From the sequence record SRR20825006_1847: a DNA stretch of 46,157 nucleotides; one strand, written 5' to 3'. A model generated the notes under the pieces. The model searched no databases and was not told the origin of the DNA. It saw only the letters and a list, made by a program, of their open reading frames with translations. The position numbers and the translations under genes are program-made. Of the stretch, positions 19,103-38,986 are shown in pieces. Position 1 is the stretch's first letter. Every line of letters starts with the position of its first letter.

Positions 19103-19321
19103 TTATTCGAAGAACTGGTCGGGATCGACCCGCCCAAATGGCGCTCTGGAGTCGCCATTGATTTGGGAAATGGGCCGGTTCGACAGGTGCATGATGGCCA
19201 TGGGCGACATTTCCGGCGCTTTGGGGCTGGGCGTGGTCGGCCAGTGGATGACCGACTGCCGGGTCTGATGCTGGATCGGTTCGAAGACCCCACCGGCACG
19301 CCGATTTACTCTGTGGCTTTT
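19103..19321 (-). pseudogene. Possible start-less gene remnant (3' end of a lost CDS)
   Basis: Open frame ...GGVFEPIQHQTRQSVIHWPTTPSPKAPEMSPMAIMHLSNRPISQINGDSRAPFGRVDPDQFFE* with strong GC3 bias. It is bounded upstream by an in-frame TAG at 19322-19324 and has no start near its 5' end. Confidence 0.35.
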
Positions 19322-19338
19322 CTAAAGGTTTTTCGGGA

Positions 19339-19372
19339 AAGGCGGTTGACGACCGCCTTAAAACGTATATAC
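19339..19372 (+). promoter_or_regulatory. Putative promoter/operator of the RHH-parA pair
   Basis: AAGGCGGT-TGACG-ACCGCCTT inverted repeat overlapping TTGACG (-35-like), plus palindrome GTATATAC at 19365-19372 over the -10 region. Confidence 0.5.
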
Positions 19373-19399
19373 AAAGATCAACCCGAACCGAGACATCAC

Positions 19400-19570
19400 A
19401 TGCCCCCCAAAAGCAAAAAAGACAGCAGTTTGATCATTCGCCTGCCCAAGGCAGACCGGGATGACTTTGTCGCGCTTTGCGAGAAAACCGGCACCTCGGC
19501 TTCACGCGAATTGCGCGAGCATATTCAGAAATTCATCAAGAAAAACAGTAAGAAAGGATCGTCCTCGTGA
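19400..19570 (+). CDS. Small ribbon-helix-helix-like DNA-binding protein (56 aa)
   Basis: MPPKSKKDSSLIIRLPKADRDDFVALCEKTGTSASRELREHIQKFIKK: alternating beta strand, helix, G-x-S turn, helix. Stop overlaps the parA GTG (GTGA). Confidence 0.7.
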   Translation: MPPKSKKDSSLIIRLPKADRDDFVALCEKTGTSASRELREHIQKFIKKNSKKGSSS

Positions 19571-20196
19571 AAACGCTACTGGTCGCCAACAGCAAAGGTG
19601 GATCCGGCAAAACCATGACGGCGATCACATTGGCCGCGGCGTTGAAAGCGGCGGGGTTCAAGGTCGCTTTGGCTGATGCCGACCCGCAACAATCGGCGCG
19701 CCAATGGGGCAAACGCCGCTCCGCCTATGCGCCACATATCCCCTTGCTCGATTGGTCCGGCACGGCGCGGCCTTCGGTGCCCAAAAAGACCGAATGGCTG
19801 GTGATCGACAGCGGCGCGGGGCTTGGCGCGGAAGAGGCAAAACCGTTTTTGAAAGACGCCGATGTCATGGTCACCCCGGTGATGGCCTCGATGTTTGACG
19901 AATTGGCGGCCAAAGGGTTTTTGAAATCCCTGCGCGAGATCAAACAGATCAAAAAAGGCAAAATCGACATCCTGCCCATTGGGTCACGGATTGATCCAAG
20001 GCGCAAAGATGCACGGTTGTTAAAGGAATTCCTGGCGGCCAATGGTCAAGAGCTTGTGACCATGATCTCGGAACGCGCCGCCTATGTCGATTTGGCCCGC
20101 GAAGGCCTGTCGATTTTCGACCAAAAACAGGCACGATTCACGCCGATCAAACAGCAATGGCAGCCGGTGCTCAAACGCATGGGTGTCAAACTCTAA
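19567..20196 (+). CDS. ParA family ATPase (no N-terminal HTH)
   Basis: Deviant Walker A KGGSGKT, DADPQQS, VIDSGAG. Confidence 0.9.
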   Translation: MKTLLVANSKGGSGKTMTAITLAAALKAAGFKVALADADPQQSARQWGKRRSAYAPHIPLLDWSGTARPSVPKKTEWLVIDSGAGLGAEEAKPFLKDADVMVTPVMASMFDELAAKGFLKSLREIKQIKKGKIDILPIGSRIDPRRKDARLLKEFLAANGQELVTMISERAAYVDLAREGLSIFDQKQARFTPIKQQWQPVLKRMGVKL

Positions 20197-20359
20197 ATTC
20201 AGGCGCTCTGGCCCACAGATTTTGCCCTCTGGCCGCATGACGAAGCAGTAAGAATCGGCCAATCTGCCCCGGCAAAGACGGGTCAGTCGCGCGACTGTCA
20301 TATTCGCGACACAGCTCGGCGCTACCTCCATGCAACACCGCTTAGAGGACACTACGCGC

Positions 20360-21304
20360 ATGATCCCATCCGCCTTCACCGCCCCCGGCCGTTTTTATCG
20401 CGGCAATCTTCACACCCATTCCACGCTCTCCGACGGGATATTGGACCCTGCCGAGGTCTGCCGTCGCTATAAAGCCGAGGGCTATGATTTCATTGCCCTG
20501 ACGGATCATTTCGTCGGCGTTTACAACTATCCACTGGCCGACACTGTGCCATTCCGCGATGACGCGTTTACCACGATCTTGGGTGCTGAATTGCATTCGG
20601 GCGCGATGGAAAATGGCGAGCTTTGGCATATTCTCGCGGTCGGCCTGCCCGCCGATTTCGCGCCCTCCAACAGCCCGGCCTTTGTGCCCGTGGAAGGCCA
20701 AGAAACCGGCCCCGAACTTGCCCAACGCGCCCGTGACGCAGGCGCTTTTGTCGCCGTGGCACATCCGCAATGGTCGGGCATGTCGCTCGCAGATGCGCGC
20801 TCCATCGAGGCCGCCCATGCGGTCGAGATTTACAACCACGGCTGTGCCATGGGCTGTGATCGCGCAGATGGGGCGTTTTATGCCGATTTGTTGCTCTCGG
20901 AAGGTCGCGACCTGACCCTGATCGCCACCGATGACGCACATTTTTCCGAGCCCGACCATTTCGGCGGCTGGGTCATGGTCAAATCCGAAGAGAACACCCC
21001 GGAAGCACTTTTGGAGGCGCTCAAACGCGGCGATTTCTATAGCTCGCAAGGCCCGGAATTGCGCCACGTCGAGGTAAGCGACAAAGCGATGACGGTGCAG
21101 TGCAGCGCCGTCTCCTCCGTGATCGTGCAGGGCCATGGCAGCGCCGCCACCGCCGTCCACGGCGCAAGCCTGACCCAAGCAGAGGTGCCGTTGGGGCGGT
21201 TTTTCAACAGCCCTTGGCTGCGTGTGACGGTGTTGGATCGGGCCGGAAAACGGGCATGGTCCAACCCAATGCCCAACCCGGCCTATAAAATGCCGAAAAA
21301 ATAG
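20360..21304 (+). CDS. PHP-domain (CehA/McbA-like) metallohydrolase
   Basis: GNLHTHSTLSDG, LTDH, AHP, EIYN, DDAH, GDFYSSQGP, AWSNP. Confidence 0.85.
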   Translation: MIPSAFTAPGRFYRGNLHTHSTLSDGILDPAEVCRRYKAEGYDFIALTDHFVGVYNYPLADTVPFRDDAFTTILGAELHSGAMENGELWHILAVGLPADFAPSNSPAFVPVEGQETGPELAQRARDAGAFVAVAHPQWSGMSLADARSIEAAHAVEIYNHGCAMGCDRADGAFYADLLLSEGRDLTLIATDDAHFSEPDHFGGWVMVKSEENTPEALLEALKRGDFYSSQGPELRHVEVSDKAMTVQCSAVSSVIVQGHGSAATAVHGASLTQAEVPLGRFFNSPWLRVTVLDRAGKRAWSNPMPNPAYKMPKK

Positions 21305-21311
21305 TCATATC

Positions 21312-21338
21312 CGGTCGCGCCTCAAACGGGCGCGACCG
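21312..21338. terminator. Stem-loop between the convergent PHP and RidA genes
   Basis: CGGTCGCGCC-N7-GGCGCGACCG perfect 10-bp stem; the loop contains the RidA stop codon. Confidence 0.45.
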
Positions 21339-21717
21339 CTGTCACTTCGACCTCGACCAAAAACTCTGCACGGGTGAAGCCCGTGACGATGATCAGGGTG
21401 GAGGCGGGTTTGACCGCGACCTGCGCCAACCACGCATCGCGCACCGCCATATAGGTCGCAAAATCTTCGCGCCGGGTGACAAACGCGGAGATGCGGATCA
21501 CATCGGATCGTCCCGCACCCGCCTCTGTCAAAATTGCGTCAATATTGGAGAAACACTGTTCTGACTGGGCTTTCACGCCTTCAGGACAGGTGCCATCGGG
21601 GGCAAGACCTAGTTGACCCGACGTTACGATCACCCGTCCACCCGGACCCGCATCAATCCCATGCGAATAGGCGCCAAAAGGCGCGGCAATACTCGGGGGA
21701 GTCAGGGCTTTTTTCAT
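21322..21717 (-). CDS. RidA/YjgF family imine deaminase
   Basis: PFGAYSHG, SGQLG, PASTLIIVTGF, LVEVEVTA. Start MKKALTP (alternative at 21732). Confidence 0.9.
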   Translation of the reverse strand: MKKALTPPSIAAPFGAYSHGIDAGPGGRVIVTSGQLGLAPDGTCPEGVKAQSEQCFSNIDAILTEAGAGRSDVIRISAFVTRREDFATYMAVRDAWLAQVAVKPASTLIIVTGFTRAEFLVEVEVTAVAPV

Positions 21718-21862
21718 CGTCGGCACATCCATTTGAGATTCGGTCGCGTGCCCTCTGCATGGCAGGTTGTGCCGACAAAGACCCGAATTGTGTACAATGG
21801 CGCATCCGAAATCCCCGTCTGCCGCATGATATTTGACCATCCGGCCAGAAAATCGCCGCAGA

Positions 21863-21887
21863 ATTGAGCAATTCATGTTTGCTCAAT
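21863..21887. promoter_or_regulatory. Perfect inverted repeat in the divergent ridA/ABC promoter region
   Basis: ATTGAGCAA-TTCATGT-TTGCTCAAT; overlaps a CGC-N11-GCA NtrC-like element. Confidence 0.5.
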
Positions 21888-21969
21888 CAAAAGCGCCGCC
21901 CCGCCCTACCCTTCCCCCCGGAACCGCTCGCTAGGATGGTCTTCGGAATTTCACCCACGGAGAATTGAC

Positions 21970-22977
21970 ATGACACTCAAACGCGTCCTCGCGGGGCTGA
22001 CCCTTGCCGCGACCACGTCCACCGCCGCCCTCACGGGGGCGATGGCCGCCGATCTGACCCCGGTCACCTTTGGCACCAACTGGCTGGCTCAGGCCGAGCA
22101 CGGTGGCTATTACCAAGCGGTCGCAGATGGCACCTATGCCGAATGCGGTCTGGATGTGACCATCCAATCTGGCGGCCCACAGGTGAACAACCGCGCCTTG
22201 TTGCTGGCCAATAAAATTCAGTTTCACATGGGTGGCGATCTTTTGCAGGCTTTCAATGCCGCCAAAGAGGGCATCCCGGTTGTGGCCGTGGCCGCCACGT
22301 TTCAAAAACACCCGCAGGTGATCATCGCCCACCCCGGCCAGGCGGACACATTCGCCGACCTGACAAAGCTGACGCTGTTGATCGGCGACAACGGCTTTGC
22401 CTCCTATTACCAATGGATGATGGCCGCCTATGGCTTTACCGCTGAACAGCGCGAACCCTACACGTTCAACCCCGCCCCGTTCCTGGCCGATGAAGGCAAG
22501 GCGATGCAGGGCTACCTGTCCTCCGAACCCTATGTGATTGAAAAAGAGGGTGGTTTTACCCCTGACGTGTTCCTGATCGCGGATGCGGGCTATTCGACCT
22601 ATGCCACCACCATCGAAACCATGCAGAACACCATTGAGGAAAGCCCCGAATCTGTGGCCTGTTTCGTCGATGGCTCGGCCAAGGGCTGGTACAATTACAT
22701 CTATGGCGATCACTCGGCCGCCGATGCGATGATCATGGCCGCCAACCCGGACATGACCCAGGACAAGATCGACTTTGCCATCGAGAAAATGAAATCAGAA
22801 GGCATCGTCGACAGTGGCGACGCGCTTGAGCTGGGCATCGGGGCGATGACCGATGAAAAGATCAAAGATTTCTACGACAAAATGGTCGATGCGGGCGTGA
22901 TCGAGGCGGGGCTGGATTATTCTGCCGCGTACACCTTGGCCTTCACCAACAAAAAGGTCGGGATGGATCTCAAATAA
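21970..22977 (+). CDS. ABC transporter substrate-binding protein, NMT1/THI5 (NitT/TauT) family
   Basis: Signal peptide, FGTNWLAQAEHGGYYQAVADG, GGPQVN, QGYLSSEP. Confidence 0.9.
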   Translation: MTLKRVLAGLTLAATTSTAALTGAMAADLTPVTFGTNWLAQAEHGGYYQAVADGTYAECGLDVTIQSGGPQVNNRALLLANKIQFHMGGDLLQAFNAAKEGIPVVAVAATFQKHPQVIIAHPGQADTFADLTKLTLLIGDNGFASYYQWMMAAYGFTAEQREPYTFNPAPFLADEGKAMQGYLSSEPYVIEKEGGFTPDVFLIADAGYSTYATTIETMQNTIEESPESVACFVDGSAKGWYNYIYGDHSAADAMIMAANPDMTQDKIDFAIEKMKSEGIVDSGDALELGIGAMTDEKIKDFYDKMVDAGVIEAGLDYSAAYTLAFTNKKVGMDLK

Positions 22978-23010
22978 GACCTTTGGCCTGAGACCCTCCC
23001 TGACATCTCA

Positions 23011-23044
23011 CACGGGGGCGCGATCCGTTTGTCCCGCCCCCGTG
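23011..23044 (+). terminator. Intercistronic stem-loop after the SBP gene
   Basis: CACGGGGGCG...CGCCCCCGTG 10-bp stem, typical of mRNA-stabilising hairpins after binding-protein genes. Confidence 0.55.
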
Positions 23045-23067
23045 ATCTCTAAAACCAGCAGGTAAAC

Positions 23068-23874
23068 ATGACCTCCCCCAACATAATTCCGCCCATGGGC
23101 CAGCGCGAAAAGCTCTTGGATATGGTGAATGTCGATAAGGTGTTCAACGGCAATGTCGTGGCCCTCAAAGACATGAACCTGACCGTCAATCAGGGCGATT
23201 TCATTTCGCTTTTGGGGCCCTCTGGCTGTGGCAAATCCACCGCTTTGCGGCTGATTTCCGGGCTGATGCGGCCCACCTCGGGTCAGATTTCGTGGGAGGG
23301 CGGTCAAAACTCTGGCGATCTGGGCGTGGTGTTCCAAGAGCCCACTTTGATGCCCTGGGCCACGGTCGAGCAAAACGTCTGGCTGCCATTTCGCCTGCGC
23401 GGCAAATCGCTTTCGGATGTGCAGGACGAGATCATGTGGGCGCTCAACATGGTTGGCCTTGAGAAATTCCAACGCTCTTATCCGCGCGAACTCTCGGGGG
23501 GGATGAAAATGCGCGTTTCCATCGCCCGTGCTTTGGTCACAGAGCCGCGGCTGATCCTGATGGATGAACCTTTCGCCGCCTTGGATGAAATCACCCGGCA
23601 CAAATTGAACAACGATCTGTTGGACCTCAGAGACAAATTGAAATGCACGGTGATTTTCGTCACCCATTCGGTGTTTGAATCGGTGTTTCTTTCGGATCGC
23701 ATCGTTGTCATGGCGGCGCGTCCGGGGCGGGTGTCCTCGGAGGTCACGGTCGATGCGCCCTACCCGCGCACCGAAGACTTCCGCACCTCCGCCGCCTATG
23801 CCGACCTGTGCCGCAAGGCCTCGGACGCATTGCACGGCGCAATGAATCAACATGGCGCGAGGGCTTCCGCATGA
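23068..23874 (+). CDS. ABC transporter ATP-binding protein (NitT/TauT family)
   Basis: GPSGCGKST, VFQEPTLMPW, LSGGMKMR, LMDEPFAALD. Confidence 0.95.
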   Translation: MTSPNIIPPMGQREKLLDMVNVDKVFNGNVVALKDMNLTVNQGDFISLLGPSGCGKSTALRLISGLMRPTSGQISWEGGQNSGDLGVVFQEPTLMPWATVEQNVWLPFRLRGKSLSDVQDEIMWALNMVGLEKFQRSYPRELSGGMKMRVSIARALVTEPRLILMDEPFAALDEITRHKLNNDLLDLRDKLKCTVIFVTHSVFESVFLSDRIVVMAARPGRVSSEVTVDAPYPRTEDFRTSAAYADLCRKASDALHGAMNQHGARASA

Positions 23875-24725
23875 GTTTGACCGATATGAACCCACCGCTG
23901 GTGGTCGACGAAGAAGAACTGCGCCACGCCCGCGCCCAAAAACGCGAGCGCATCGCCAAATGGGTCCTGCCCGTTGTGGTGATCGCTCTTGCGATTTTCA
24001 TGTGGGATCGGATCGTGGTCTGGAATGACATCCCGCATTACATTTTGCCCGGTCCCGGCCTTGTGATCACAACCCTGATTGCCGATTGGGGCATGTTGTC
24101 CTCTGCCCTTGTTGTGACGTTGAAAATCACTTTGGCCGCTCTGTCGGTGGCGGTGATCGGCGGCGTGGGGCTGGCGATCCTGTTCACCCAATCGCGCTAT
24201 TTCGAGATGTCGTTTTACCCGTTCGCGGTGATCCTTCAGGTCACGCCCGTGGTCTCGATCGCGCCGTTGATTTTCATCTATGTCGAAAACCGTCTGGCGG
24301 GCCTGTTGCTTTGTGCGTGGATCGTGGCGTTTTTCCCGATCCTGTCCAACACCACGCTGGGCCTCAATTCCACCGACCATAACCTGCGCGATCTCTATAA
24401 AATCTACGGCGCGACCCGGTGGCAACGCCTGCGCTATCTGCAACTGCCGACCGCGCTGCCGTATTTCTTGGGCGGGCTTCGCATTGCCGGGGGTCTGTCC
24501 TTGATCGGGGCAGTGGTGGCCGAATATGTCGCGGGCACGGGTGGCATCGGATCGGGTTTGGCGTTTCGCATCCTTGAGGCGGGGTATCGCCTCAACATTC
24601 CGCGCATGTTCGCGGCGCTTCTTTTGATCGCGGCCACAGGCGTCGTGATCTTTACCGCAGCCTCGCTTTTAAGCCACGCGCTGCTTCACAAATGGCACGA
24701 AAGTGCGATCAAACGGGAGTCATAA
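23871..24725 (+). CDS. ABC transporter permease (NitT/TauT family)
   Basis: QVTPVVSIAP, FFPILSNT, LIGAVVAEY. ATG overlaps the ATPase stop (ATGA). Confidence 0.93.
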   Translation: MSLTDMNPPLVVDEEELRHARAQKRERIAKWVLPVVVIALAIFMWDRIVVWNDIPHYILPGPGLVITTLIADWGMLSSALVVTLKITLAALSVAVIGGVGLAILFTQSRYFEMSFYPFAVILQVTPVVSIAPLIFIYVENRLAGLLLCAWIVAFFPILSNTTLGLNSTDHNLRDLYKIYGATRWQRLRYLQLPTALPYFLGGLRIAGGLSLIGAVVAEYVAGTGGIGSGLAFRILEAGYRLNIPRMFAALLLIAATGVVIFTAASLLSHALLHKWHESAIKRES

Positions 24726-24734
24726 GGAACCTGA

Positions 24735-26030
24735 ATGAGCTTTTGCGTTCTGCCCAGCGGCGCGAAGATACTTGAAAACGTCACCCTCCCGGCCTGCCTT
24801 ATGGGCCTTGAGGGGGATCTTATCCAAACCAACCTGACCATTGCAGATGGCAAGATCACATCAACGGACGCTGGAGCCTCAGCCGAAACTGTGATCCCCA
24901 GATTTGATATGAAAGGCGCAATGGTCTTTCCCTGTTTTGTCGATATGCACACGCATTTGGACAAGGGGCACATTTGGCCACGGGCCTCAAACCCGGACGG
25001 CTCTTTCATGGGCGCGCTCAACACAGTGCGTGCAGATCACGGCAATTGGACGGCCGAGGATGTCGCCGCGCGGATGGATTTCGCCCTGCGCTGCGCCTAT
25101 GCCCATGGCACCAAGGCGATCCGCACCCATATCGACAGCCTGGACAATCTCGCCGCCTCCTCCTTTGGCGTGATTGCCGAGATGCAGGACAGATGGCGTG
25201 GCAAGATTGAGCTTCAGGCCTCCTGTCTGGTGGCCGTTGACCGGATTTTCCGTGACGAGGGCGATTTCCCCGCGATTGCGAAAATTGTCGCGGAGGGCGG
25301 TCACACGCTTGGGTCGGTCACCTATCCGGTGCCAGACCTGAAAGAGCGGCTGTTGGATTTCTTTCACTTCGCGATACTCTATGATTTGGACGTCGATTTT
25401 CACGTCGATGAAACCGACGATCCCACCTCGGACACGCTGCGCACCATCGCCGAAACCGTTTTGGAACTGGGCTTTAAAAACGCCGTCACCGTGGGGCATT
25501 GTTGCTCAATCTCGGTGATGCCGGAGGAAACCGCGAACGAAATCATCGCGCTGGTGGCCGAGGCCGGGCTCAACGTCGTCTCCCTACCGATGTGCAACAT
25601 GTATCTGCAAGACCGCACTCCGGGCCGCACACCGCGGTGGCGCGGTGTGACCATGGCGCATGAGTTGAAAGCCGCCGGGGTCAACGTCTCCTTTGCCTCG
25701 GACAACACCCGCGATCCGTTCTACGCCTATGGCGATCTCGACATGATCGAGGTCATGCGCGAAGCCACGCGGATTTGTCATTTGGATCATGGCCGCACCG
25801 ATTGGACCGAGGCCTTCCTCACCAATCCGGCCCGTGCCTGTGGCTTTGACGCCCCCTCATTGACCATCGGCGCCCCTGCCGATCTGGTCCTGTGCAACGC
25901 ACGAAACTGGACCGAGCTTTTCGCCCGTCCACAGGCCGACCGGGTGGTTTTACGGGACGGAGATCCCATCGACCGCAGCCTGCCGTCCTACAGTGAACTC
26001 GATCAAATTGTGAGCAAATCCCATGTCTGA
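24735..26030 (+). CDS. Cytosine deaminase-like amidohydrolase (possible pterin deaminase)
   Basis: HTHLDKGH, IRTHID, FHVDET, GHCCS and SDNTRDPFYAYGDLD metal-centre motifs. Confidence 0.85.
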   Translation: MSFCVLPSGAKILENVTLPACLMGLEGDLIQTNLTIADGKITSTDAGASAETVIPRFDMKGAMVFPCFVDMHTHLDKGHIWPRASNPDGSFMGALNTVRADHGNWTAEDVAARMDFALRCAYAHGTKAIRTHIDSLDNLAASSFGVIAEMQDRWRGKIELQASCLVAVDRIFRDEGDFPAIAKIVAEGGHTLGSVTYPVPDLKERLLDFFHFAILYDLDVDFHVDETDDPTSDTLRTIAETVLELGFKNAVTVGHCCSISVMPEETANEIIALVAEAGLNVVSLPMCNMYLQDRTPGRTPRWRGVTMAHELKAAGVNVSFASDNTRDPFYAYGDLDMIEVMREATRICHLDHGRTDWTEAFLTNPARACGFDAPSLTIGAPADLVLCNARNWTELFARPQADRVVLRDGDPIDRSLPSYSELDQIVSKSHV

Positions 26031-27438
26031 CATGAAACCCAATATCGCCGCCGCCAAGGCCGCGCTGTCCCATATTGAAATGGACGAAAGCCCCGTCACC
26101 ATCCGCAACAAATCCCGCGATTTCTTTTGGTATTCGCCGGTTCTTAAGGCGGAAATGGACCATTTGGAGGCCGATTTCGTCGTCAATCCAAAATCCGAAG
26201 CCGAGGTGATCGAGGTCCTCAAGGTCTGCTATGCCCATGACGTCCCCGTCACCATGCGCGGCGGCGGCACCGGCAATTACGGCCAAGCCATGCCCTTGGC
26301 GGGCGGCTGTGTCATGCACATCACCGGCATGAATAGGATCAAAGAGATCGGCCAAGGTTATGTCATCGCCGAACCCGGCATCATCATCAAAGAGCTCGAC
26401 GCCGAACTGAAAGAAAAATCCGGTCAGGAATTGCGCATGTTCCCCTCGACCTATTCCCAAGCCTCGCTTGGCGGCTTTGTCGCCGGTGGCTCCGGCGGGG
26501 TTGGATCGGCCAATTGGGGTGCGCTGCGCGATCTGGGCAACATCAACCGGTTGCGCATTGTGACCATGGAGGCCGAGCCGCGCGTGTTGGAGTTCACCGG
26601 CGAAGAATTGCACCGGGTCAGCCACGCTTACGGCACCAACGGCATCATCACCGAACTCGAAATGCCGCTCGCCCCCGCCTATGATTGGGTCGAGATGTTC
26701 GTGCGCTTTGACACCTTCCGCGCGGCCACAGAATTCGCCGGGACGCTGACCAAGGAGCCGGGCATCCTGATCAAACTCGCCTCGGTCTATGGCGCACCGA
26801 TTGCGCATAAATATTTCCAGCGCGTCAAAGCCCATGTCACCGAGGACGATCACCTCTGCGGGTTGATGGTCGCGCCACAGTCGATGGACGGGTTCCTGAC
26901 CCTGTTGGCGCGGTTTGACGAGGGCGAGGTGATTTACCGCTCCGACGATGTGGTTTGGGACCGCCACCCCGGTCCGATCTATGAATATGGCTGGAACCAC
27001 ACCACCCTGCGGGCGCTGAAATTTGAGAAAGACCTGACCTATCTTCAGGTCCGTTACGGTGGCGATGTGGACAAGGTCATGGCCGCCTCAGAGGCCTTTG
27101 CGGACAAGCTTTACATGCACCTCGAAGTCATGCGCGAAGGCGGTGGGATTTCCTTTGCTGGCTTGCCCATCGTGCAACCGATGAGCAAGGCGGAGCTGGA
27201 TCAACTGGTCGCCGATCACGAGGCGATGGGCTGTATGATTTTCAACCCGCATCGCTACACCTTGGAAGAGGGCGGACGGCAATCCGCCGACCAGCGCCAG
27301 CTTGATTTCAAACGCGAAGCTGATCCCAAAGGCCTTTTGAATCCTGGCAAAATGATCACCTGGGATGAACCGGATTTCGACTATTCGGATATGTATTCCT
27401 ACAAAGGCATCCTCCCAAAACCTGAGGCCGCCGAATGA
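26023..27438 (+). CDS. FAD-binding oxidoreductase (VAO/GlcD-type FAD-binding domain)
   Basis: RGGGTGNYGQAMP, GGFVAGGSGG, HAYGTNGIIT, C-terminal DPKGLLNPGK. Confidence 0.88.
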   Translation: MSDMKPNIAAAKAALSHIEMDESPVTIRNKSRDFFWYSPVLKAEMDHLEADFVVNPKSEAEVIEVLKVCYAHDVPVTMRGGGTGNYGQAMPLAGGCVMHITGMNRIKEIGQGYVIAEPGIIIKELDAELKEKSGQELRMFPSTYSQASLGGFVAGGSGGVGSANWGALRDLGNINRLRIVTMEAEPRVLEFTGEELHRVSHAYGTNGIITELEMPLAPAYDWVEMFVRFDTFRAATEFAGTLTKEPGILIKLASVYGAPIAHKYFQRVKAHVTEDDHLCGLMVAPQSMDGFLTLLARFDEGEVIYRSDDVVWDRHPGPIYEYGWNHTTLRALKFEKDLTYLQVRYGGDVDKVMAASEAFADKLYMHLEVMREGGGISFAGLPIVQPMSKAELDQLVADHEAMGCMIFNPHRYTLEEGGRQSADQRQLDFKREADPKGLLNPGKMITWDEPDFDYSDMYSYKGILPKPEAAE

Positions 27439-28040
27439 CCCAGCCCCGCACAGCCACCAAAGGCCGTGTGCTCGTGCTCTACGCCCACCCCTGCCCCGAA
27501 AGCTTTAACGCGGCGGTGCATGAGGTGGTCGTCGGCACGCTGACCGCATCCGGCTGGGAGGTCGATGATTGCGACCTCAATGCCGAAGGCTTTTTCCCGG
27601 TGCTCACAGAGATCGAGCGCCGGGGCTATCATGACGAACCCGCAAACATCGAACCGGTCAAAGACTATGTCGCTCGCGTCAAAGCTGCCGATGCGTTGGT
27701 CATGGTGTTTCCGGTGTGGAATTTCGGCTATCCCGCAATCCTCAAAGGCTTTTTAGACCGGGTGTTCTTGCCGGGGATCAGTTTCAAACTGGTCGATGGC
27801 AAGGTCCGCCCCGGCCTGACCAACATCAAAAAGCTCTACGCCTGCACCACCTATGGCGGCACCCGTTGGCGCGCGATCCAAAACGCCGATCCACCCCGTA
27901 AAACCGTCACCCGTGCGGTGTGGTATGCCTGTGGCATGCCAAAAAAGAAATACATCGGCCTCTACGACATGAACCGCAACACCAAGCCAAAGCTCAAAGC
28001 GCATCTCGAACGGGTGCGGCGCGAGATGGAGGCGTTTTGA
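27435..28040 (+). CDS. Flavodoxin-fold NAD(P)H-dependent oxidoreductase (copy 1)
   Basis: YAHPCPESFN, FPVWNFGYPAILKGFLDRV. Confidence 0.9.
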   Translation: MTQPRTATKGRVLVLYAHPCPESFNAAVHEVVVGTLTASGWEVDDCDLNAEGFFPVLTEIERRGYHDEPANIEPVKDYVARVKAADALVMVFPVWNFGYPAILKGFLDRVFLPGISFKLVDGKVRPGLTNIKKLYACTTYGGTRWRAIQNADPPRKTVTRAVWYACGMPKKKYIGLYDMNRNTKPKLKAHLERVRREMEAF

Positions 28041-28658
28041 ATGCGCGCGCTTGTCATCTACTGCCACCCGCGCGAGACCTCGTTCAACCGCGGCATTCGC
28101 GATTTGGTCCTCACGCGGCTCAGCGCCGCCGGGGCCGAGGTGCGCCTACGCGATCTTTATGCCGAAGGGTTCGATCCGGTCATGTCGGCCTATGATCACG
28201 AGACCTACGAAACCGTGCCGGAGAACCGCAAGCGGGTCGAGCGCGATTGTACCGACCTTGAATGGTGCGACACGCTGATCTTTATCTACCCGACGTGGTG
28301 GTACGGCTTGCCCGCCATGCTCAAGGGCTGGTTGGACCGGGCTTTGGTGCCCGACGTGGCGTTTATCATGCCGAAATCCGAGGGCGAGGACATCAAACCC
28401 GGCCTCACCCATATCACCAAACTGGGCGTGTTTACGACCTGCGGCGCCTCAAAGTGGCTGACCTTTCTGGTCGGCGCGCCGGGCAAGCGCACGTTGATGC
28501 GCGGGCTGCGGATCATCTTGGCGAAACGCTGTAAAACCGCCTTTGCCGCGCATTTCCTGATGGACAGTTCCACGCCTGAAAGCCGCGCCAAACACCTGAC
28601 GCGGGTGCAAAAGCGGCTCGACCGGCTCATTGCTGCCCCAACCCCAAAGGAGGGATGA
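28041..28658 (+). CDS. Flavodoxin-fold NAD(P)H-dependent oxidoreductase (copy 2)
   Basis: YCHPRETSFN, DLYAEGFDP, YPTWWYGLPAMLKGWLDR. Confidence 0.9.
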   Translation: MRALVIYCHPRETSFNRGIRDLVLTRLSAAGAEVRLRDLYAEGFDPVMSAYDHETYETVPENRKRVERDCTDLEWCDTLIFIYPTWWYGLPAMLKGWLDRALVPDVAFIMPKSEGEDIKPGLTHITKLGVFTTCGASKWLTFLVGAPGKRTLMRGLRIILAKRCKTAFAAHFLMDSSTPESRAKHLTRVQKRLDRLIAAPTPKEG

Positions 28659-29585
28659 ATGGATATTCCTGTTCTCGATTGGCAACGCTTTGCCTCCGGC
28701 TCCGATGTCGACGGCTTCGTGCGCGACCTGGGCCGGGCGTGCCGCGAAACCGGGTTCTTTTTGATCACCGGCCACGGCATTCCCGACGACTTGATCAAGG
28801 ATGTCTTTGCCAAGGGTGACACGTTTTTCGCGCGTCCCATGGCCGAAAAATCAAAAGTCGACATTCGCAACAACCCGCACAATCGCGGCTGGGCCTGTGA
28901 AGGCTCCGAGGCGCTGGACGAAACCTCCGGCCAAATGGACCGCAAAGAGGCGTTCAATGTCGGGCTTGATCTGACCGCCGACGATCCGCGTGTTCTCAAC
29001 GGCGAGCCTTTCCGGGGCGTCAATATCTGGCCCGAAATCGACGGCTTTCGCGACACCATGCTGGCCTATTACGATCAGATCTGGGCCCTGTCGCGCGCGT
29101 TGCACCGGGCGTTTGAACTGGACCTGAACCTGCCGCAGGACTATTTTGCGCCCCATTTCACCGCCCCCTTGGCGACCCTGCGCGTGCTCTCTTATCCGGC
29201 CGCGACAGACGGGACGGGCATCGGCGCGGGCGCGCATACGGATTATGGCTCTGTCACCCTGCTGATGACCGATGGCGTCGGCGGGTTGCAGGTCAAACCG
29301 CGCGGTCTGGATTGGATCGACGCGCCGCATGTGCCCGGCGCTTTCGTGGTCAATATCGGTGACTGTTTGATGCGGTGGAGCAATGACATCTATGTCTCCA
29401 CCCCGCATCGGGTTTTGCCACCCAAAACCGCCCGCCGCTCAATCGCCTTTTTCCTCGACCCGAACCCGGACAGCGTGATCACCGCCCTGCCCGGCACCGG
29501 CGAGGCCAAATATGCCGCCATAACCGGCGCCGACTATCTGCGCTCGCGTCTGGACGCGACCTATACCCCAAAGGACATCACATGA
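28659..29585 (+). CDS. 2-oxoglutarate/Fe(II)-dependent oxygenase (isopenicillin N synthase family)
   Basis: GFFLITGHG, HTDYG (HxD), VNIGD, STPHRV, RRSIAFF. Confidence 0.92.
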   Translation: MDIPVLDWQRFASGSDVDGFVRDLGRACRETGFFLITGHGIPDDLIKDVFAKGDTFFARPMAEKSKVDIRNNPHNRGWACEGSEALDETSGQMDRKEAFNVGLDLTADDPRVLNGEPFRGVNIWPEIDGFRDTMLAYYDQIWALSRALHRAFELDLNLPQDYFAPHFTAPLATLRVLSYPAATDGTGIGAGAHTDYGSVTLLMTDGVGGLQVKPRGLDWIDAPHVPGAFVVNIGDCLMRWSNDIYVSTPHRVLPPKTARRSIAFFLDPNPDSVITALPGTGEAKYAAITGADYLRSRLDATYTPKDIT

Positions 29586-30385
29586 GCTGTCTTGCAGAAA
29601 AAAGATACGACTGGGCCGAGTTCCGCACCACGGAATTCGCCGATATGGACCCGGAAAAAACCATCGTCATCCTGCCCACCGCCGCCGTTGAACAACACGG
29701 GCCTCACCTGCCCGTCGGCGTCGATCAGTACATCAACGAAGGCATGTTGGCGCATCTGCGCGCCACCTGCCCCGAGGACATCAATATCCTGATCCTGCCG
29801 GTGCAGGCGGTCGGCAAATCCAACGAGCATATCCACGCCAAAGGCACGCTGACCTATACGGCCAAAACCGCGCTTGATGCCTGGACCGAGATCGGGCTTT
29901 CGGTGGCGCGAGCGGGGTTGAAAAAGATGGTGATCGTCAATTCCCACGGCGGCAATCTGGACCTGATCTCGATCTTGGGTCGCGAGTTGCGGGTGCAGGC
30001 CGGGATGATGGTGGTGAAATGCCAATGGGGCAATTTTGGCAAGCCCGAGGGGATGTATTCGGCGCAGGAAAGCACCTACGGCATCCATGGCGGCGATCTT
30101 GAGACCTCTTTGATGCTGCATTTCAAACCGCATCTGGTGGACATGTCCAAAGCCGAAGATTTCCGCTCAACGGCAGAAACCGCGCCGATCTCACCAATCG
30201 GTCCGGTGAACCTCGCGTGGGTGTCCAAAGACCTGAACCCCAAAGGCACAGTCGGCGAAGCGCATTTGGCCACAGCCGAGAAAGGCATCGCCACCTGCGC
30301 CCATCAAGTGGCGGGGTTTATCGACATGCTCAAAGAGTTCCGTGACCTCTCCTCTGAGGGCTACGCACGCACGATACCGGATTAA
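29582..30385 (+). CDS. Creatininase-family amidohydrolase
   Basis: AVEQHGPHLPVGVD, GKSNEH, NSHGGN, HGGDLETS. Confidence 0.92.
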   Translation: MSCLAEKRYDWAEFRTTEFADMDPEKTIVILPTAAVEQHGPHLPVGVDQYINEGMLAHLRATCPEDINILILPVQAVGKSNEHIHAKGTLTYTAKTALDAWTEIGLSVARAGLKKMVIVNSHGGNLDLISILGRELRVQAGMMVVKCQWGNFGKPEGMYSAQESTYGIHGGDLETSLMLHFKPHLVDMSKAEDFRSTAETAPISPIGPVNLAWVSKDLNPKGTVGEAHLATAEKGIATCAHQVAGFIDMLKEFRDLSSEGYARTIPD

Positions 30386-30408
30386 GCCTGCGAGTGAGAT
30401 ACGATGAC

Positions 30409-30434
30409 AAAGGGGGCCGATTGGTCCCCTTTTT
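30409..30434 (+). terminator. Rho-independent terminator of the catabolic operon
   Basis: AAAGGGGGCC-GATT-GGTCCCCTTTTT. Confidence 0.75.
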
Positions 30435-30552
30435 GGTGGAGTGTTGTTATGACGCGAAGGGCGGGTTGGAGCCCAGCTTGACTGATACTAAGACATTGAT
30501 CAATGTCGGCTTCATTGGAAGAGTGGCAGATGCAATATCAAATCGAGAGGAA

Positions 30553-31092
30553 ATGATCGTAATCTACTCTTTAACGTTTCTGCTTGGTTTGATTGTTGCT
30601 CCGCTTATGGCTCATATCCGAGGCTGGAAGCCCGCTGCATTATTCTTTGCTGCTGCGGTCATCTACGGAATTTTTGGTGCCGCGAGTTTGGCACAAATCC
30701 AAATCGGTCTAAGCCAAATCAAACAAACAGGACCTGCATATCACGACACCTACTATGTTGTAAGCCATGGCTATTTTATAGCGAACATCGGCATCGCAAT
30801 GGCTGTCTTCGGGGTGATAACATGGGTGCAAACGCGGTTCGGGGCGATGAGGTACCCAGCCCTGACCAACATTCTCTTCTGGGTTTTACATATCGCACTG
30901 ATCGGCAGCACTGCATTCCAAGGCCCGCTCGCCTTTGTTGTGCCAAAGCCGCGCAGATACATCGACTTTCCAGAGTTCATGGAAACCTACGCTCTGATTA
31001 ACGCGTGGTCTGGATTTCTATCACAAACGGCATTACTCGGCCTTCTGGGCCTGTTGCTATGGTCGATCATGGCAAAATGGTTGGTTAGGTAA
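30553..31092 (+). CDS. Small integral membrane protein resembling the C-terminal helices of haem-copper oxidase subunit I
   Basis: GAGAGGAA RBS then MIVIYSL (179 aa), about 5 hydrophobic segments, HDTYYVVSHGYF and PKPRRYIDFP motifs; lower GC than its neighbours. Confidence 0.7.
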   Translation: MIVIYSLTFLLGLIVAPLMAHIRGWKPAALFFAAAVIYGIFGAASLAQIQIGLSQIKQTGPAYHDTYYVVSHGYFIANIGIAMAVFGVITWVQTRFGAMRYPALTNILFWVLHIALIGSTAFQGPLAFVVPKPRRYIDFPEFMETYALINAWSGFLSQTALLGLLGLLLWSIMAKWLVR

Positions 31093-31165: not shown

Positions 31166-31200
31166 AAAAAGACCCCCGAATTCCCCTTCGGGAGCCTTTT
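31166..31200 (-). terminator. Rho-independent terminator of the Pot-like ABC operon
   Basis: Minus strand AAAAGGCTCCCGAA-GGGGAA-TTCGGGGGTCTTTTT; probably bidirectional. Confidence 0.7.
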
Positions 31201-31220: not shown

Positions 31221-32411
31221 TCACTCGCTTGGCGCGGGCGGTGCGATACCCCCGAAGGCGCCGCCAAAGCCGCCCTCGGGTTTCGGCGCTGCAGGCGCGG
31301 GTGCCGCTCCGCCCAATCCCCCAAAAGCCCCACCAAACCCGCCTTCGGGTTTTGGCACGGTGATGCCCTGCTCCGCCTCTTGCGCCTCGATCTTGGCCTT
31401 TTGCGCCGCGCGCAACTCGGCTTGGCGGTCGAGTTTGTCTTGCAAAATCGCGGCCTCACAGACCGAGCTGTCGTGTTTGGAGCCGATATAGGACACCGTT
31501 GCCACAATTGCCACGAGGATCGCGAACACCACGCCCGGATGGGTCAGCGCGCGCGTCACCGGATTGGCGTAGAGCGGCGAACGGGACGCCTTGCCGCCCA
31601 GTTCCGCCTCTTTGCGCCGCTGCACCGCCTCGTTGGTCAAGGCCCCCACCAGCGTGATGGTGATGATGATCACGGCCAAAGCGGAGAGCGACGGGTCCGT
31701 GCCATGCCGCACCTTTGAGGCAAGCGCCGTGGTGAATGTGCTTTCCGAGAGGACAGTGAACACCGTGGTGTTGTAATTCTCGAACGACGCCAGAAGCGTG
31801 ATGAAGGCTGCCGAGCCAATCGCCGGGGCCATAAAGGGCAGCAAAATTTTGCGAAACGCCTGACCCGGCGTAGCGCCAAGATCCAAAGCCGCCTCGGTCT
31901 GGGTGGCGTCGAACCGTTGCAACCGGGCGATGAACACCAACATCGCATAGGCGGAGACAAAGGTGATCTGGCCTACAATGGTCAGGAAATAACCGTTGTA
32001 GATCCCGGCCTGTACCGCCCCGCCCAGCCCGCGCGAAATCTGCCCCCACAGCACGATGGTCGAGATGCCCAAAACCACACCGGGGATCAGGATCGGCAGG
32101 ATCAGCACGGTGTAAAGCGTGGCGCGCAGTTTGGAGGGCAATTCGGACAAAGCCAAAGCGCCCGCAAGCCCGATCGGCACCGCCAGCGCGACCACGCCCA
32201 CCCCGATGATCACGGAGTTCAGCAAGCCGTCCATCAGCCGTTGGTTGCCAAAGAGTTCTGCAAACCATCCGGTGGTGAAACATTCCCACGGCACCACGCG
32301 GGGGAATTTCGACGAATTGAAGGCGGTGACCACCATGATGATCAGCGGGCCAAACAAAAAGGAGAAAAACGCGATGGCGTAAGCGCCACCAAAGACAACC
32401 GCCCGGCTCAT
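31221..32411 (-). CDS. PotC-like ABC permease with extended C-terminus
   Basis: AFNSSKFP, LPILIPGVVLG, EAALDLGAT, SFENYNTT; extra TM segment, coiled coil and Gly-rich tail. Confidence 0.9.
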   Translation of the reverse strand: MSRAVVFGGAYAIAFFSFLFGPLIIMVVTAFNSSKFPRVVPWECFTTGWFAELFGNQRLMDGLLNSVIIGVGVVALAVPIGLAGALALSELPSKLRATLYTVLILPILIPGVVLGISTIVLWGQISRGLGGAVQAGIYNGYFLTIVGQITFVSAYAMLVFIARLQRFDATQTEAALDLGATPGQAFRKILLPFMAPAIGSAAFITLLASFENYNTTVFTVLSESTFTTALASKVRHGTDPSLSALAVIIITITLVGALTNEAVQRRKEAELGGKASRSPLYANPVTRALTHPGVVFAILVAIVATVSYIGSKHDSSVCEAAILQDKLDRQAELRAAQKAKIEAQEAEQGITVPKPEGGFGGAFGGLGGAAPAPAAPKPEGGFGGAFGGIAPPAPSE

Positions 32412-33331
32412 TTGCCGATCTCCCCAACAGAAACCTTGAACACCCGCATCATCAACAAAACAAAAGAGATACAGGTCAATAGCAACACCACGGCGTAGGC
32501 CGAACCACGGGGCCAGTTGGAGCTTTCATTGAACCATTGATAGATGACTTGCGTGAACCACAGGTTTGACGGCCCGCCCAGAATTTGCGGCGCGGCCAGG
32601 GCCCCGGCTGTGAGCATAAACACCATGGTCGCGCCCGACACGATCCCCGGTTTGGCAATCGGCAACACCACCCGCCAATGCACCCGCCAGAGCGGAGCGC
32701 CCATGTCGCGGGCGGCTTCGACTTGGGTGTGATCGAGTGCCTCGATGGCGTTGTACATCGGGAAGATCATCAGCAAGATATAGGCGTAGGACAGGCCAAA
32801 ATAGAGCGCGACATCGGCGCGGATGAAATCCACCGGCACGTCCCAAAGCCCCATCTGCATCCCCACCGTGTTGACCACACCCGTGGCCCCAAACAGCACC
32901 CGAAAGGCAAAAGCGCGCAGGATTTCATTGATCCAATAGGGGAGGATCAAGCCGATCACCATCAACCGCGCGGCCACGCCTTTGGCCCCATGGGCAAGGA
33001 TATAGGCGATGGGGTAACAGATCAGTACGTCAATCAGGGTGACGATGGCGGCGGCCAAGAGCGTACGCCCCAAAATGACCAAATCCAACGTGTTGAGCGA
33101 CCCGTCCGAGTTGAAGAAAAAGCTGTGAAAATTATCCAGCGTGTAGTGATCCGCATCCGTGCCGATCTGATCGGCGGGCAGGTTGAAGCGGAAGGAATAA
33201 TCCAACATCGACAGTTGCGGCAGGGTGATGAACACCACCACCCAAAGCGTCACGGCAATGGCGACAAACAGCGCAGCACCCAAGCCATGCCGATTGGCCA
33301 GCGCGCGGTAGGCCTGTGTCAGATGTTTCAT
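32408..33331 (-). CDS. PotB-like ABC permease
   Basis: CYPIAY, LPYWINEILRAFA, EAARDMGA, NWPRGSA. Confidence 0.92.
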   Translation of the reverse strand: MKHLTQAYRALANRHGLGAALFVAIAVTLWVVVFITLPQLSMLDYSFRFNLPADQIGTDADHYTLDNFHSFFFNSDGSLNTLDLVILGRTLLAAAIVTLIDVLICYPIAYILAHGAKGVAARLMVIGLILPYWINEILRAFAFRVLFGATGVVNTVGMQMGLWDVPVDFIRADVALYFGLSYAYILLMIFPMYNAIEALDHTQVEAARDMGAPLWRVHWRVVLPIAKPGIVSGATMVFMLTAGALAAPQILGGPSNLWFTQVIYQWFNESSNWPRGSAYAVVLLLTCISFVLLMMRVFKVSVGEIGK

Positions 33332-34443: not shown

Positions 34444-34476
34444 GGTATCGCCTTATTATTGTGGGTCATCAAAATG

Positions 34477-34510
34477 AAAACCGCCCCACGCCAAAAGGCG
34501 CAGAGCGGTC
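34477..34510 (-). terminator. Intercistronic stem-loop after the SBP gene
   Basis: Minus strand GACCGCTCTGCGCC-TTTT-GGCGTGGGGCGGTTTT. Confidence 0.6.
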
Positions 34511-34520
34511 GTGACCCAGA

Positions 34521-35666: not shown

Positions 35667-35805
35667 GTCACTCCCCGTGAACTTGGTTGGCTGGCTCGCC
35701 GCGCTTTTGCGTCATGTTTCTTTGGTCATTCGGTCGAACCACGGCGCAGGATCATCCCATCGCCGCTCATGAGAAAAGCCTAGGGGCGGCCTGTCTGGCG
35801 TATTT

Positions 35806-35836
35806 AGAGCCAGTTGTGCTAAATTATGGGTCCAGA
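35806..35836 (-). promoter_or_regulatory. Putative MocR/TauR-type operator, copy 1
   Basis: AGAGCCAG-N12-ATGGGTCCAGA between the SBP gene and the regulator; both half-sites recur identically at 38987-39017. Confidence 0.8.
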
Positions 35837-35995
35837 GCGCGTTTCGCCCCTGTACCTCACCGTGATGCTCAATAGAGTGGCGCTATCGGGTCGCCCCTGC
35901 ACAGCTTGCGGGCGGAGGTGTCATCGCCCTCGCGAAACACAGCGGCGGTGAAAGAGACGCGATGAATGAGACAATGAAAGAAACGGTGCGCCCTT

Positions 35996-38952: not shown

Positions 38953-38986
38953 CCCCCATCCATCGCCGGAAAGGTCAGACCCGGAC

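Follow-up and report, generated by a model that had tools for sequence, protein, structure and literature searches.

Nearly every cell makes pterins, folate among them. The E. coli Rut pathway (RutA-G) associates a ring-cleaving flavin oxygenase, a flavin reductase, an amidohydrolase, a transporter and RutC, a protein of the Rid family; its RutA belongs to the luciferase-like proteins and its RutB to the isochorismatases. The enzyme Arad3529 reportedly starts a pterin degradation pathway that is undescribed. This pterin deaminase of Agrobacterium radiobacter K84 (Fan et al., JACS 2013, as cited in PMC9513972, PMC12391406 and PMC13197243) is a cytosine-deaminase-like amidohydrolase acting on pterins. 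A single bacterial route for destruction of the pteridine ring, described in 2025, is known from the literature and is molybdenum-dependent. According to its description (PMC12391406), cluster I of Cupriavidus sp. LA-1 codes for a pterin deaminase, the molybdenum enzyme LuDH, the isomerase DHLI and the prFMN decarboxylase XCDC, and leads from lumazine to xanthine. The same authors (Doi et al., PMC12391406) state that in Rhizobiales and Rhodobacterales the lumazine clusters carry CDA-like genes in place of the pterin deaminase.

The locus described here lies in a window of 46,157 nucleotides, the whole stretch of DNA that was analysed (sequence record SRR20825006_1847). Its deaminase is CodA-like, as is Arad3529, but rhizobia have at least two groups of NF005759 proteins, found in different clusters. 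With Cupriavidus cluster I (PMC12391406), the locus would share an initial deamination of pterin to lumazine followed by oxidation of the pyrazine ring. Neither a molybdenum enzyme such as LuDH nor DHLI (Amidohydro_2) nor XCDC (UbiD) is coded in the operon or in the rest of the window, and assignment to a Cupriavidus-type lumazine cluster I was rejected because all three families are absent. Their place is taken by a flavoenzyme of the VAO fold, a pair of NQO-like reductases, a hydrolase of the creatininase family (CREA) and a Rid protein, and the importer of the locus is an ABC system, whereas purine/pyrimidine permeases are described for cluster I (PMC12391406). The overall logic of oxygenase, reductase, hydrolase, Rid protein and transporter resembles by analogy that of the Rut pathway, but the enzymes are not homologous at family level and the operon has an additional deaminase. 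Members of the superfamilies of E. coli CodA and Pseudomonas creatininase are also present and keep most catalytic metal ligands; they differ by changed substrate-binding residues, by one changed metal ligand and by scores below the cut-offs of the equivalog models.

Gene organization and conservation of the operon

The features of the locus are the following.

21322-21717, - strand: Rid-family (YjgF/L-PSP) protein, 131 aa (PF01042)
21718-21969, no strand: divergent intergenic (promoter) region of 252 nt, between the Rid gene and the SBP gene
21970-22977, + strand: periplasmic substrate-binding protein (SBP) of the NMT1/THI5 type (PF09084)
23068-23874, + strand: ABC transporter ATPase (PF00005, ABC_tran)
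23871-24725, + strand: ABC transporter permease (PF00528, BPD_transp_1)
24735-26030, + strand: amidohydrolase-superfamily deaminase (Amidohydro_3/NF005759)
26023-27438, + strand: PCMH/VAO-fold FAD enzyme (PF01565, FAD_binding_4)
27435-28040, + strand: flavodoxin-fold NAD(P)H oxidoreductase 1 (FLX1), NQO/MdaB-like (PF02525, Flavodoxin_2)
28041-28658, + strand: flavodoxin-fold NAD(P)H oxidoreductase 2 (FLX2; PF02525, Flavodoxin_2)
28659-29585, + strand: 2-oxoglutarate/Fe(II) (2OG) oxygenase, isopenicillin-N-synthase-like (PF14226, DIOX_N, and PF03171, 2OG-FeII_Oxy)
29582-30385, + strand: creatininase-family metal hydrolase, CREA (PF02633)
30409-30434, + strand: intrinsic terminator with a 10-bp stem, a GAUU loop and a U-tract (from folding and reading of the sequence)

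The nine + strand genes form one conserved operon with a terminator at its end. They are co-oriented and mostly overlap or abut in the ORF table, with the Rid-family gene diverging on the - strand. Profile searches recovered on the nine ORFs every gene family that an earlier note, made from the letters of the sequence, had named. The six abutting or overlapping junctions quoted there are exact: the ATGA at 23871-23874, in which the permease start codon overlaps the ATPase stop codon, was read in the sequence, and the coordinates of the ORF table give the others, among them the 8-nt overlap of the deaminase and FAD enzyme genes. The remaining two junctions are short gaps of 90 nt (SBP-ATPase) and 9 nt (permease-deaminase). 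The terminator said to close the run is found after the last stop codon as a hairpin with a U-tract (30409-30434; MFE -20.7 kcal/mol, z -2.1, with 8 of 200 shuffled sequences folding equally well), and was missing from the output of a simple terminator scan.

Of 83 loci examined, 4 were set aside and 15 are truncated, leaving 64 untruncated Rhodobacterales loci that were counted. The SBP, ATPase, permease, deaminase and FAD enzyme are present in constant order in all 64, so that the genes are indeed conserved together by genome-neighbourhood comparison, and this recurrence places the five-gene core arrangement far beyond chance. The other members are found in 62 (FLX1), 63 (FLX2), 62 (CREA), 55 (2OG oxygenase) and at least 52 (Rid) of the 64 loci, and all ten genes keep an identical order in 41. 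The 2OG oxygenase, listed in the earlier note as part of the operon, is thus present here without being a core member; by these counts both it and the Rid protein are accessory.

More distant homologs of the FAD enzyme were found in 18 further loci, with a homolog of CREA nearby in 12, of the deaminase in 12 and of the SBP in 13. A single flavodoxin-fold reductase gene is found in a plasmid locus (L002) and in most of the rhizobial-type loci examined (L120, L121, L127, L128). Genes neighbouring the distant versions code for allophanate hydrolase, AtzH-like, amidase, isochorismatase and RutR-like TetR proteins, which fit with a ureide or pyrimidinedione product, and for urea-type transporters.

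Proteins coded by the locus

The SBP (PF09084, 71.7 bits) has a signal-peptide-like amino terminus. The solved folds nearest to its structural model (pLDDT 89.9) are, in this model-based comparison, ThiY (3ix1; formylaminopyrimidine), a thiamin-binding protein (4nmy) and Thi5. These relatives bind thiamine-type pyrimidines, not pteridines, and the thiamine-type binding proteins are 18-20% identical to the SBP. The ATPase and the permease score 118 bits (PF00005) and 78 bits (PF00528), respectively.

The deaminase belongs to the NF005759/PRK07583 family (600.8 bits for a cut-off of 403), which carries the name 'cytosine deaminase'. In the alignment the catalytic residues of CodA (HxH, His, Glu, His, Asp) are matched by H72/H74, H223, E226, H255 and D323. 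At the positions of Gln156 and Asp314, which we take to be the numbers of the cytosine-binding residues of CodA, it has Ala167 or Val168 and Asn324, respectively, and it scores far below cut-off with the E. coli-type cytosine deaminase models (NF006685, 127 vs. 483; NF005748, 176 vs. 438). A CodA-type cytosine deaminase (EC 3.5.4.1) was rejected on these two grounds. The best PDB match, 4r7w, is deposited as cytosine deaminase and is presumably the Klebsiella 5-methylcytosine deaminase. The R. leguminosarum ortholog is 96% identical to a UniRef entry named 'Pterin deaminase', so that this name is found within the ortholog group of an enzyme for which pterin deamination had been suggested beforehand. 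The protein is proposed to be a pterin 2-aminohydrolase. Rhizobium and Agrobacterium carry a second NF005759 group in a different cluster. Both rhizobial groups score above the cut-off of 403 (698 for group 1, 617 for group 2), and the second could be the true Arad3529 group.

The FAD enzyme features a FAD_binding_4 domain (PF01565, 96 bits) and full-length similarity to PDB 6V42 (535 bits over residues 7-463; Foldseek E 1.6e-49, TM 0.87, 54% identity). This identity exceeds the sister-paralog band of 36-44% and lies inside the ortholog band of 49-67%, the range found for rhizobial clusters that share the gene order; at the level of sequence the protein is an ortholog-level match to 6V42. Entries 6V42/6V43, released in 2020, are titled "flavin oxygenase ... 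involved in folate catabolism", and this homolog brings independent support to the pterin idea of the earlier note. A folate-derived substrate for the FAD enzyme is a lead, since it comes from an unpublished depositor title and 54% identity does not fix specificity. Literature searches found no publication on 6V42/6V43, no paper on a flavin-dependent pterin route and nothing in print on the steps that follow deamination.

FLX1 and FLX2 (PF02525, 109 and 113 bits) are old paralogs with 33% identity to each other, and the nearest PDB entries of FLX1 are NAD(P)H:quinone reductases. The 2OG oxygenase (PF03171, 82 bits) has the H193-x-D195 and H250 facial triad and the R259-x-S261 2OG-binding motif; its PDB relatives include thymine dioxygenase 5c3p (2.5e-39). 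CREA aligns with positions 2-237 of the 238 of profile PF02633 (223 bits) and scores 86 bits with the creatininase equivalog TIGR04448, whose cut-off is 235. It keeps E37, H39, D48, H122 and H169, while Glu122 of creatininase, which we take to be one of the ligands of the binuclear metal site, aligns with Gly124, and the creatininase HYEN motif reads HGGN. A true creatininase (EC 3.5.2.10) was rejected because of the TIGR04448 score and of the ligand replaced by Gly124. CREA is proposed to be an amide/formamide or lactam hydrolase acting on an oxidised ring.

The true start of the Rid gene is the ATG at position 21717, giving a protein of 131 aa instead of the 184-aa ORF and, thereby, the divergent intergenic region of 252 nt. 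The protein is a Rid-family member (PF01042, 81 bits) whose homolog likewise diverges from the operon in at least 52 of the 64 loci. The divergent RidA of the earlier note therefore stands as a divergent Rid-family gene, but not as archetypal RidA, an identity rejected with a TIGR00004 score of 62 bits for a cut-off of 106. The protein matches RutC (TIGR03610) weakly (E 3e-4). Its sequence reads K-P-A-S-T where RidA presumably has P-A-R-S, so that the conserved Arg (R105 of E. coli) is tentatively placed as missing. The region 21718-21969 has no Rfam match even at E<=1, neither a THF nor another riboswitch, and no sigma-70 consensus site. A 9-nt inverted repeat at 21863-21887 is matched in 2 of 73 loci and hence is not conserved. 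Neither a regulator gene nor a nitrogen-regulation element adjoins the operon in the window.

A candidate pteridine pathway and its alternatives

We propose that the operon takes up a pterin or lumazine derived from folate with high affinity, deaminates it, oxygenates it in a flavin-dependent step and opens it by hydrolysis, a reading to which we give somewhat better than an even chance. The substrate would be an oxidised pterin, most likely from folate decay, e.g., pterin, 6-formylpterin or pterin-6-carboxylate. The NMT1-type ABC system would import the ring compound (step 1) and the NF005759 deaminase would cleave off its exocyclic amine, so that pterin yields lumazine and ammonia (step 2). 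The VAO-fold FAD enzyme, counterpart of 6V42, would then oxygenate the lumazine ring (step 3), the two NQO-like flavodoxin-fold proteins supplying or recycling reducing equivalents or reducing a quinonoid intermediate. CREA might open the resulting lactam or act on a product of the diaminouracil type by removing its formyl or oxalyl amide (step 4), and the divergent Rid-family protein might dispose of a reactive imine or enamine (step 5). The 2OG oxygenase probably widens the substrate range through oxidation of a ring side chain, much as thymine 7-hydroxylase oxidises a methyl group. The net yield would be ammonia or urea for growth. Chemical inference alone underlies the order of the steps and the parts given to the flavodoxin pair, CREA and the Rid protein. 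The scheme of the earlier note, in which a pterin/lumazine or another N-heterocycle is taken up, deaminated, oxidised and opened, is supported in that families, operon structure and conservation hold, its substrate still being a lead. In favor of a pterin, the R. leguminosarum version of the operon adjoins a PaoABC-type molybdenum hydroxylase with XdhC. Against it, folate-specific genes (carboxypeptidase G, aminobenzoyl-glutamate hydrolase) are neither present in the window nor recurrent in the flanks, and the solved relatives nearest to the SBP bind no pteridines.

The same operon logic would also suit a monocyclic aminopyrimidine or modified nucleobase, such as 5-methylcytosine, isocytosine, the pyrimidine of thiamine (HMP or formylaminopyrimidine) or a base akin to these: removal of the ring amine would fall to the deaminase, oxidation of a methyl or hydroxymethyl side chain to the 2OG and/or FAD enzyme, and ring opening to CREA. 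We regard such a substrate as unlikely, if by no means negligible. In its favor are the nearest solved folds of the SBP (ThiY, thiamin-binding protein and Thi5), the deposition of 4r7w as cytosine deaminase, the similarity of the 2OG enzyme to thymine dioxygenase and the RutR-like TetR regulators flanking the distant versions. Against it are the folate catabolism label of the characterised protein closest to the FAD enzyme, the loss of the CodA cytosine-binding Gln and Asp, the dispensability of the 2OG gene, absent from 9 of the 64 loci, and the low identity of the thiamine-type binding proteins. A canonical creatinine and/or cytosine utilisation pathway, composed of a creatininase and a cytosine/creatinine deaminase, is suggested by the automatic names 'cytosine deaminase' (NF005759) and 'creatininase family' but is very improbable. 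The residues and model scores lost by the deaminase and by CREA indicate that the operon is neither a cytosine nor a creatinine pathway, and no creatinase, sarcosine oxidase or N-methylhydantoinase is found in the operon or in recurrent flanks.

Another explanation keeps pterins as substrate but assigns to the operon a role in salvage or damage control, clearing or recycling oxidised photoreactive pterins from the cell's own or ambient folate rather than serving mainly as nitrogen source. Seawater contains little free pterin, so that a role in nutrition is less obvious, and NQO-like reductases and Rid proteins often act in detoxification; the lack of a nitrogen-regulation element or dedicated regulator adjoining the operon in the window goes in the same direction. 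We nevertheless consider this role quite improbable, because in all 64 loci the operon begins with a dedicated ABC importer of high affinity, which argues for an external substrate, and because the allophanate hydrolase, amidase and urea-type transporter genes found next to the operon elsewhere are typical of nitrogen harvesting.

Distribution and implications of the pteridine reading

The operon is common to many marine and root-associated bacteria. The FAD enzyme family occurs in 28 of 401 sampled Pseudomonadota genomes, among them 12 of the 15 from one family and 7 of the 20 from the window's own family, and more than 7,900 proteins of the public collection match it at E<=1e-30. Contigs from RNA libraries of four seawater/marine runs match the operon, some of them bridging gene junctions, which is weak evidence. 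If pterins are degraded through flavin chemistry, the operon would define a second, enzymatically distinct pathway; functions would then be assigned to five widely mis-named families ('cytosine deaminase', 'creatininase family', 'FAD-binding oxidoreductase', 'NAD(P)H-dependent oxidoreductase' and 'RidA'), and vitamin B9 turnover in seawater and rhizosphere would become testable with defined genes. A broader proposal, which we hold tentatively and at less than even weight, is that a molybdenum-independent cleavage of the pteridine ring with Rut-like logic (VAO-fold flavin oxygenase, NQO-like reductases and CREA) is the main recycling of folate breakdown products in marine Roseobacter-group and rhizobial alphaproteobacteria.

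Organization and transcription of the operon

The operon comprises nine genes on the + strand, listed below together with the divergent Rid gene. All nine, with the families assigned to them in the earlier note, were confirmed by the ORF table and profile matches, and every one of the six junctions quoted there is exact.

Genes of the operon and its divergent neighbour (window positions; basis of assignment within brackets)
21970-22977, +, NMT1/THI5-type binding protein (family match)
23068-23874, +, ABC ATPase (family match)
23871-24725, +, permease (family match)
24735-26030, +, amidohydrolase, the deaminase (NF005759, 600.8 bits, cut-off 403)
26023-27438, +, FAD_binding_4 flavoprotein (family match)
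27435-28040, +, Flavodoxin_2 protein 1 (family match)
28041-28658, +, Flavodoxin_2 protein 2 (family match)
28659-29585, +, DIOX_N/2OG-Fe(II) oxygenase (family match)
29582-30385, +, creatininase-family protein (family match)
ATG at 21717, divergent from the operon, Rid-family gene, 131 aa (start codon read)

The ATPase/permease junction (23871-23874), read directly from the sequence, is an ATGA overlap, while the two gapped junctions measure 90 nt and 9 nt. The terminator said to close the run is a 10-bp hairpin with a U-tract at 30409-30434, 23 bases 3' of the last stop codon (-20.7 kcal/mol); this result is taken from direct folding, the hairpin at 30409 having been missed by a simple consensus scan. 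Setting the Rid start at ATG 21717 gives a divergent intergenic region of 252 nt. The divergent gene is indeed of the Rid family; its designation as RidA did not hold, the protein scoring 62 against a RidA subfamily cut-off of 106. The arginine essential in RidA seems to be absent, as judged from the protein's own sequence.

The ORF at 30394-31092 (+) was ruled out as a further, tenth member of the operon: it would start at a GTG within the terminator hairpin, it has a GC content of ~52%, and no tblastn match of at least 60% coverage was found in the 83 related loci compared. This ORF (segment 30450-31092) codes for a membrane protein with a weak COX1-like Pfam match and is found between the operon terminator and polyamine-type transporter genes; a terminator-like hairpin is present at 31175-31192. 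Two runs yielded RNA-library contigs (3.0-3.4 kb) that match the 30450-31092 segment at ~98% identity and run into sequence unlike the window, so that the segment may be inserted or mobile.

Contigs of four RNA-filed marine/seawater runs match the operon at 95-100% identity, and one RNA run covers 23 of the 30 operon bins. Five junctions (ATPase/permease, permease/deaminase, deaminase/FAD, FAD/flavodoxin-1 and flavodoxin-2/2OG) are spanned by contigs that extend 31 nt or more to either side. This occurrence of near-identical operon sequence in RNA libraries weakly supports expression; contigs of this kind could also stem from several transcripts or from DNA in the library, and uncovered parts and depth are uninformative.

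A search for riboswitches and known RNAs gave no Rfam match, whether across the whole window at the gathering score or at E<=1 within 21400-22100, and the 252-nt intergenic region has no consensus sigma-70 promoter. A perfect 9-nt inverted repeat with a 7-nt spacer is found at 21863-21887, 83 nt 5' of the binding-protein start. It was rejected as an operator, being present (<=3 mismatches) in 2 of 73 loci, both from the same species. Rhizobial versions of the cluster carry a LysR regulator.

Conservation and distribution of the gene set

The FAD gene of the window is 100% identical to that of a Celeribacter baekdonensis record; the closest genome available for comparison has 68% of sampled words in common. 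The 83 loci compared are 80 species-representative genome loci, picked with the FAD protein and by title all from Rhodobacterales or unclassified MAGs, and three plasmid records. The tally (n=64) leaves out the three plasmids, a near-identical strain and 15 loci truncated near the FAD gene. Since loci were chosen by this gene, the counts show co-occurrence given its presence.

Gene content of the 64 loci (co-occurrence given the FAD gene)
Binding protein, ATPase, permease, deaminase and FAD enzyme, in the same order: 64/64
Flavodoxin paralog 1: 62/64
Flavodoxin paralog 2: 63/64
Creatininase-family gene: 62/64
2OG oxygenase: 55/64
Divergent Rid gene: at least 52/64 (a lower bound because the query was an over-long ORF)

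The ten-gene order is identical in 41 of these loci. Apart from the ten genes, no accessory gene recurs in the regions flanking the 83 loci; the recurring flank clusters were discarded as antisense artefacts, ParA-like genes, SRAP and lineage-specific neighbours.

Of 401 evenly sampled Pseudomonadota genomes, 28 carry the FAD family (E<=1e-40), among them 7 of the 20 from the window's family and 12 of the 15 from another alphaproteobacterial family. Its matches form two bands, one of orthologs at 49-67% identity and one of sister paralogs at 36-44%. Among 18 further 20-kb neighbourhoods of distant FAD homologs, 12 code for a creatininase-family protein, 12 for an NF005759-like deaminase and 13 for an NMT1-type binding protein, which makes the partnership an old one. 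In rhizobial versions there is a single flavodoxin gene and no 2OG gene. The window operon has the form in which this widespread cluster commonly occurs in Rhodobacterales. Genes for allophanate hydrolase, AtzH-like protein, amidase, isochorismatase, a urea-type transporter and a RutR-like regulator are found near distant versions, which fits a ureide-type product.

In two alphaproteobacterial genomes (loci L114 and L115) one island carries both an FAD ortholog (48-49%) and, 4-5 kb away, a sister paralog (42%), with one deaminase, one creatininase-family gene, one flavodoxin gene and one ABC importer between them. This arrangement hints at two related flavoenzymes acting in sequence in those genomes.

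Enzymes and candidate substrate

A lead to the substrate comes from the FAD enzyme. It matches PDB 6V42/6V43 over its full length (535 bits), and its model (pLDDT 74.8) superimposes on 6V42 with a TM of 0.87 and 54% identity; the 6V42 entry title reads 'flavin oxygenase ... involved in folate catabolism'. A search of mostly open-access literature returned nothing relevant on a flavin-dependent lumazine/pterin oxygenase, on the 6V42 entry or on the gene combination of the operon. The pathway is not known to be published beyond the PDB title and, reportedly, a sentence in the abstract of Fan et al. 2013.

The automatic name of the deaminase points to cytosine metabolism, an assignment rejected on both residue and model tests. 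Aligned with E. coli CodA, the protein keeps the metal/catalytic residues H72/H74, H223, E226, H255 and D323, whereas the residue in place of CodA's cytosine-binding Gln is Ala167 or Val168, and that in place of its second Asp is Asn324. Scores on E. coli-type cytosine deaminase models are far under their cut-offs. Homology searches for an Arad3529-type deaminase returned generic names, save one UniRef entry named 'Pterin deaminase' that is 96% identical to the Rhizobium leguminosarum ortholog; none of the 15 listed members (of 111) of the UniRef cluster is marked K84, and the protein atlas gave 'cytosine deaminase' clusters only. By citation in three papers (PMC9513972, PMC13197243, PMC12391406), the family is the one containing the pterin deaminase Arad3529. 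Indirect evidence also comes from Doi et al. (PMC12391406), who place CDA-like genes where pterin deaminase would stand in lumazine clusters of Rhizobiales/Rhodobacterales.

The R. leguminosarum cluster adjoins genes for a PaoABC-type molybdenum hydroxylase and its maturation. On plasmid pSK01 (L134, 1647-7024) these are the three-subunit hydroxylase, XdhC and a cofactor nucleotidyltransferase, divergent from the creatininase-family gene. Evidence against this link is a second rhizobial NF005759 group, 44-48% identical, which lies in a different cluster with an ABC transporter, a 2OG oxygenase and LysR, and could be the Arad3529 group. The smaller conserved cluster on Rhizobium johnstonii pRL11 (L132, 5120-11128) and Agrobacterium tumefaciens pAt (L133, 5118-11128) combines LysR and a deaminase of NF005759 (44%) with an NMT1-like ABC importer other than that of the window and a 2OG oxygenase that shares 33% identity with the window's. 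This could be where the studied pterin deaminase truly belongs, or else a sister pathway.

Creatinine metabolism was rejected. With 86 bits, the creatininase-family protein stays under the cut-off of the creatininase equivalog (235), and its HGGN motif replaces HYEN, so that one metal ligand is missing, the others being kept. Neither creatinase nor sarcosine oxidase nor hydantoinase turned up in a profile search of the window. In the 2OG oxygenase the triad is complete and the RxS motif is present; thymine dioxygenase is among its PDB relatives, and this suggests that it oxidises a side chain on a ring. Both flavodoxin-fold proteins are related to NAD(P)H:quinone reductases; they are old paralogs (33% identical) from a family that usually forms homodimers.

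The earlier reading of the operon as degrading a pterin or other N-heterocycle is supported as the best lead, and we favour with moderate confidence a pterin or lumazine as substrate. The binding-protein model (pLDDT 89.9) is closest to ThiY, thiamin-binding protein and Thi5 (16-20% identity), supporting an aromatic N-heterocycle as probable ligand, not specifically a pteridine. A monocyclic aminopyrimidine or modified base, the main rival, appears rather unlikely.

For a pterin substrate, we infer all steps beyond the operon structure itself. Import would precede deamination of the pterin to lumazine, whose ring the 6V42-type enzyme would oxygenate while the two reductases give electrons or reduce a quinonoid intermediate. 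The creatininase-family enzyme would carry out hydrolytic ring opening or amide removal, the Rid protein might dispose of a reactive imine, and the 2OG oxygenase could widen the range to pterins bearing side chains. This logic parallels that of the Rut pathway, whose enzymes are unrelated. It differs from the published route (PMC12391406), which uses molybdenum, an isomerase and prFMN to reach xanthine.

Neighbouring genes in the window

The region just 5' of the Rid gene (19163-21304) contains, besides a small ORF, genes for an orphan ParA-like ATPase (NF041546, 109 bits, cut-off 180) and a PHP-domain metallohydrolase of the CehA/McbA family, the position of whose gene is kept in seven of the 83 loci, all Celeribacter. 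At 11278-16615 a dihydropyrimidine-dehydrogenase/GltD-like Fe-S flavoprotein precedes a 1201-aa pyruvate:ferredoxin/flavodoxin oxidoreductase, which is unusual in an aerobic marine heterotroph. The genes at 31221-42684 (polyamine-type ABC transporter, MocR-type regulator, aldehyde dehydrogenase, class-III aminotransferase and the ethanolamine ammonia-lyase EutBC) make up a neighbourhood of their own for amine catabolism.
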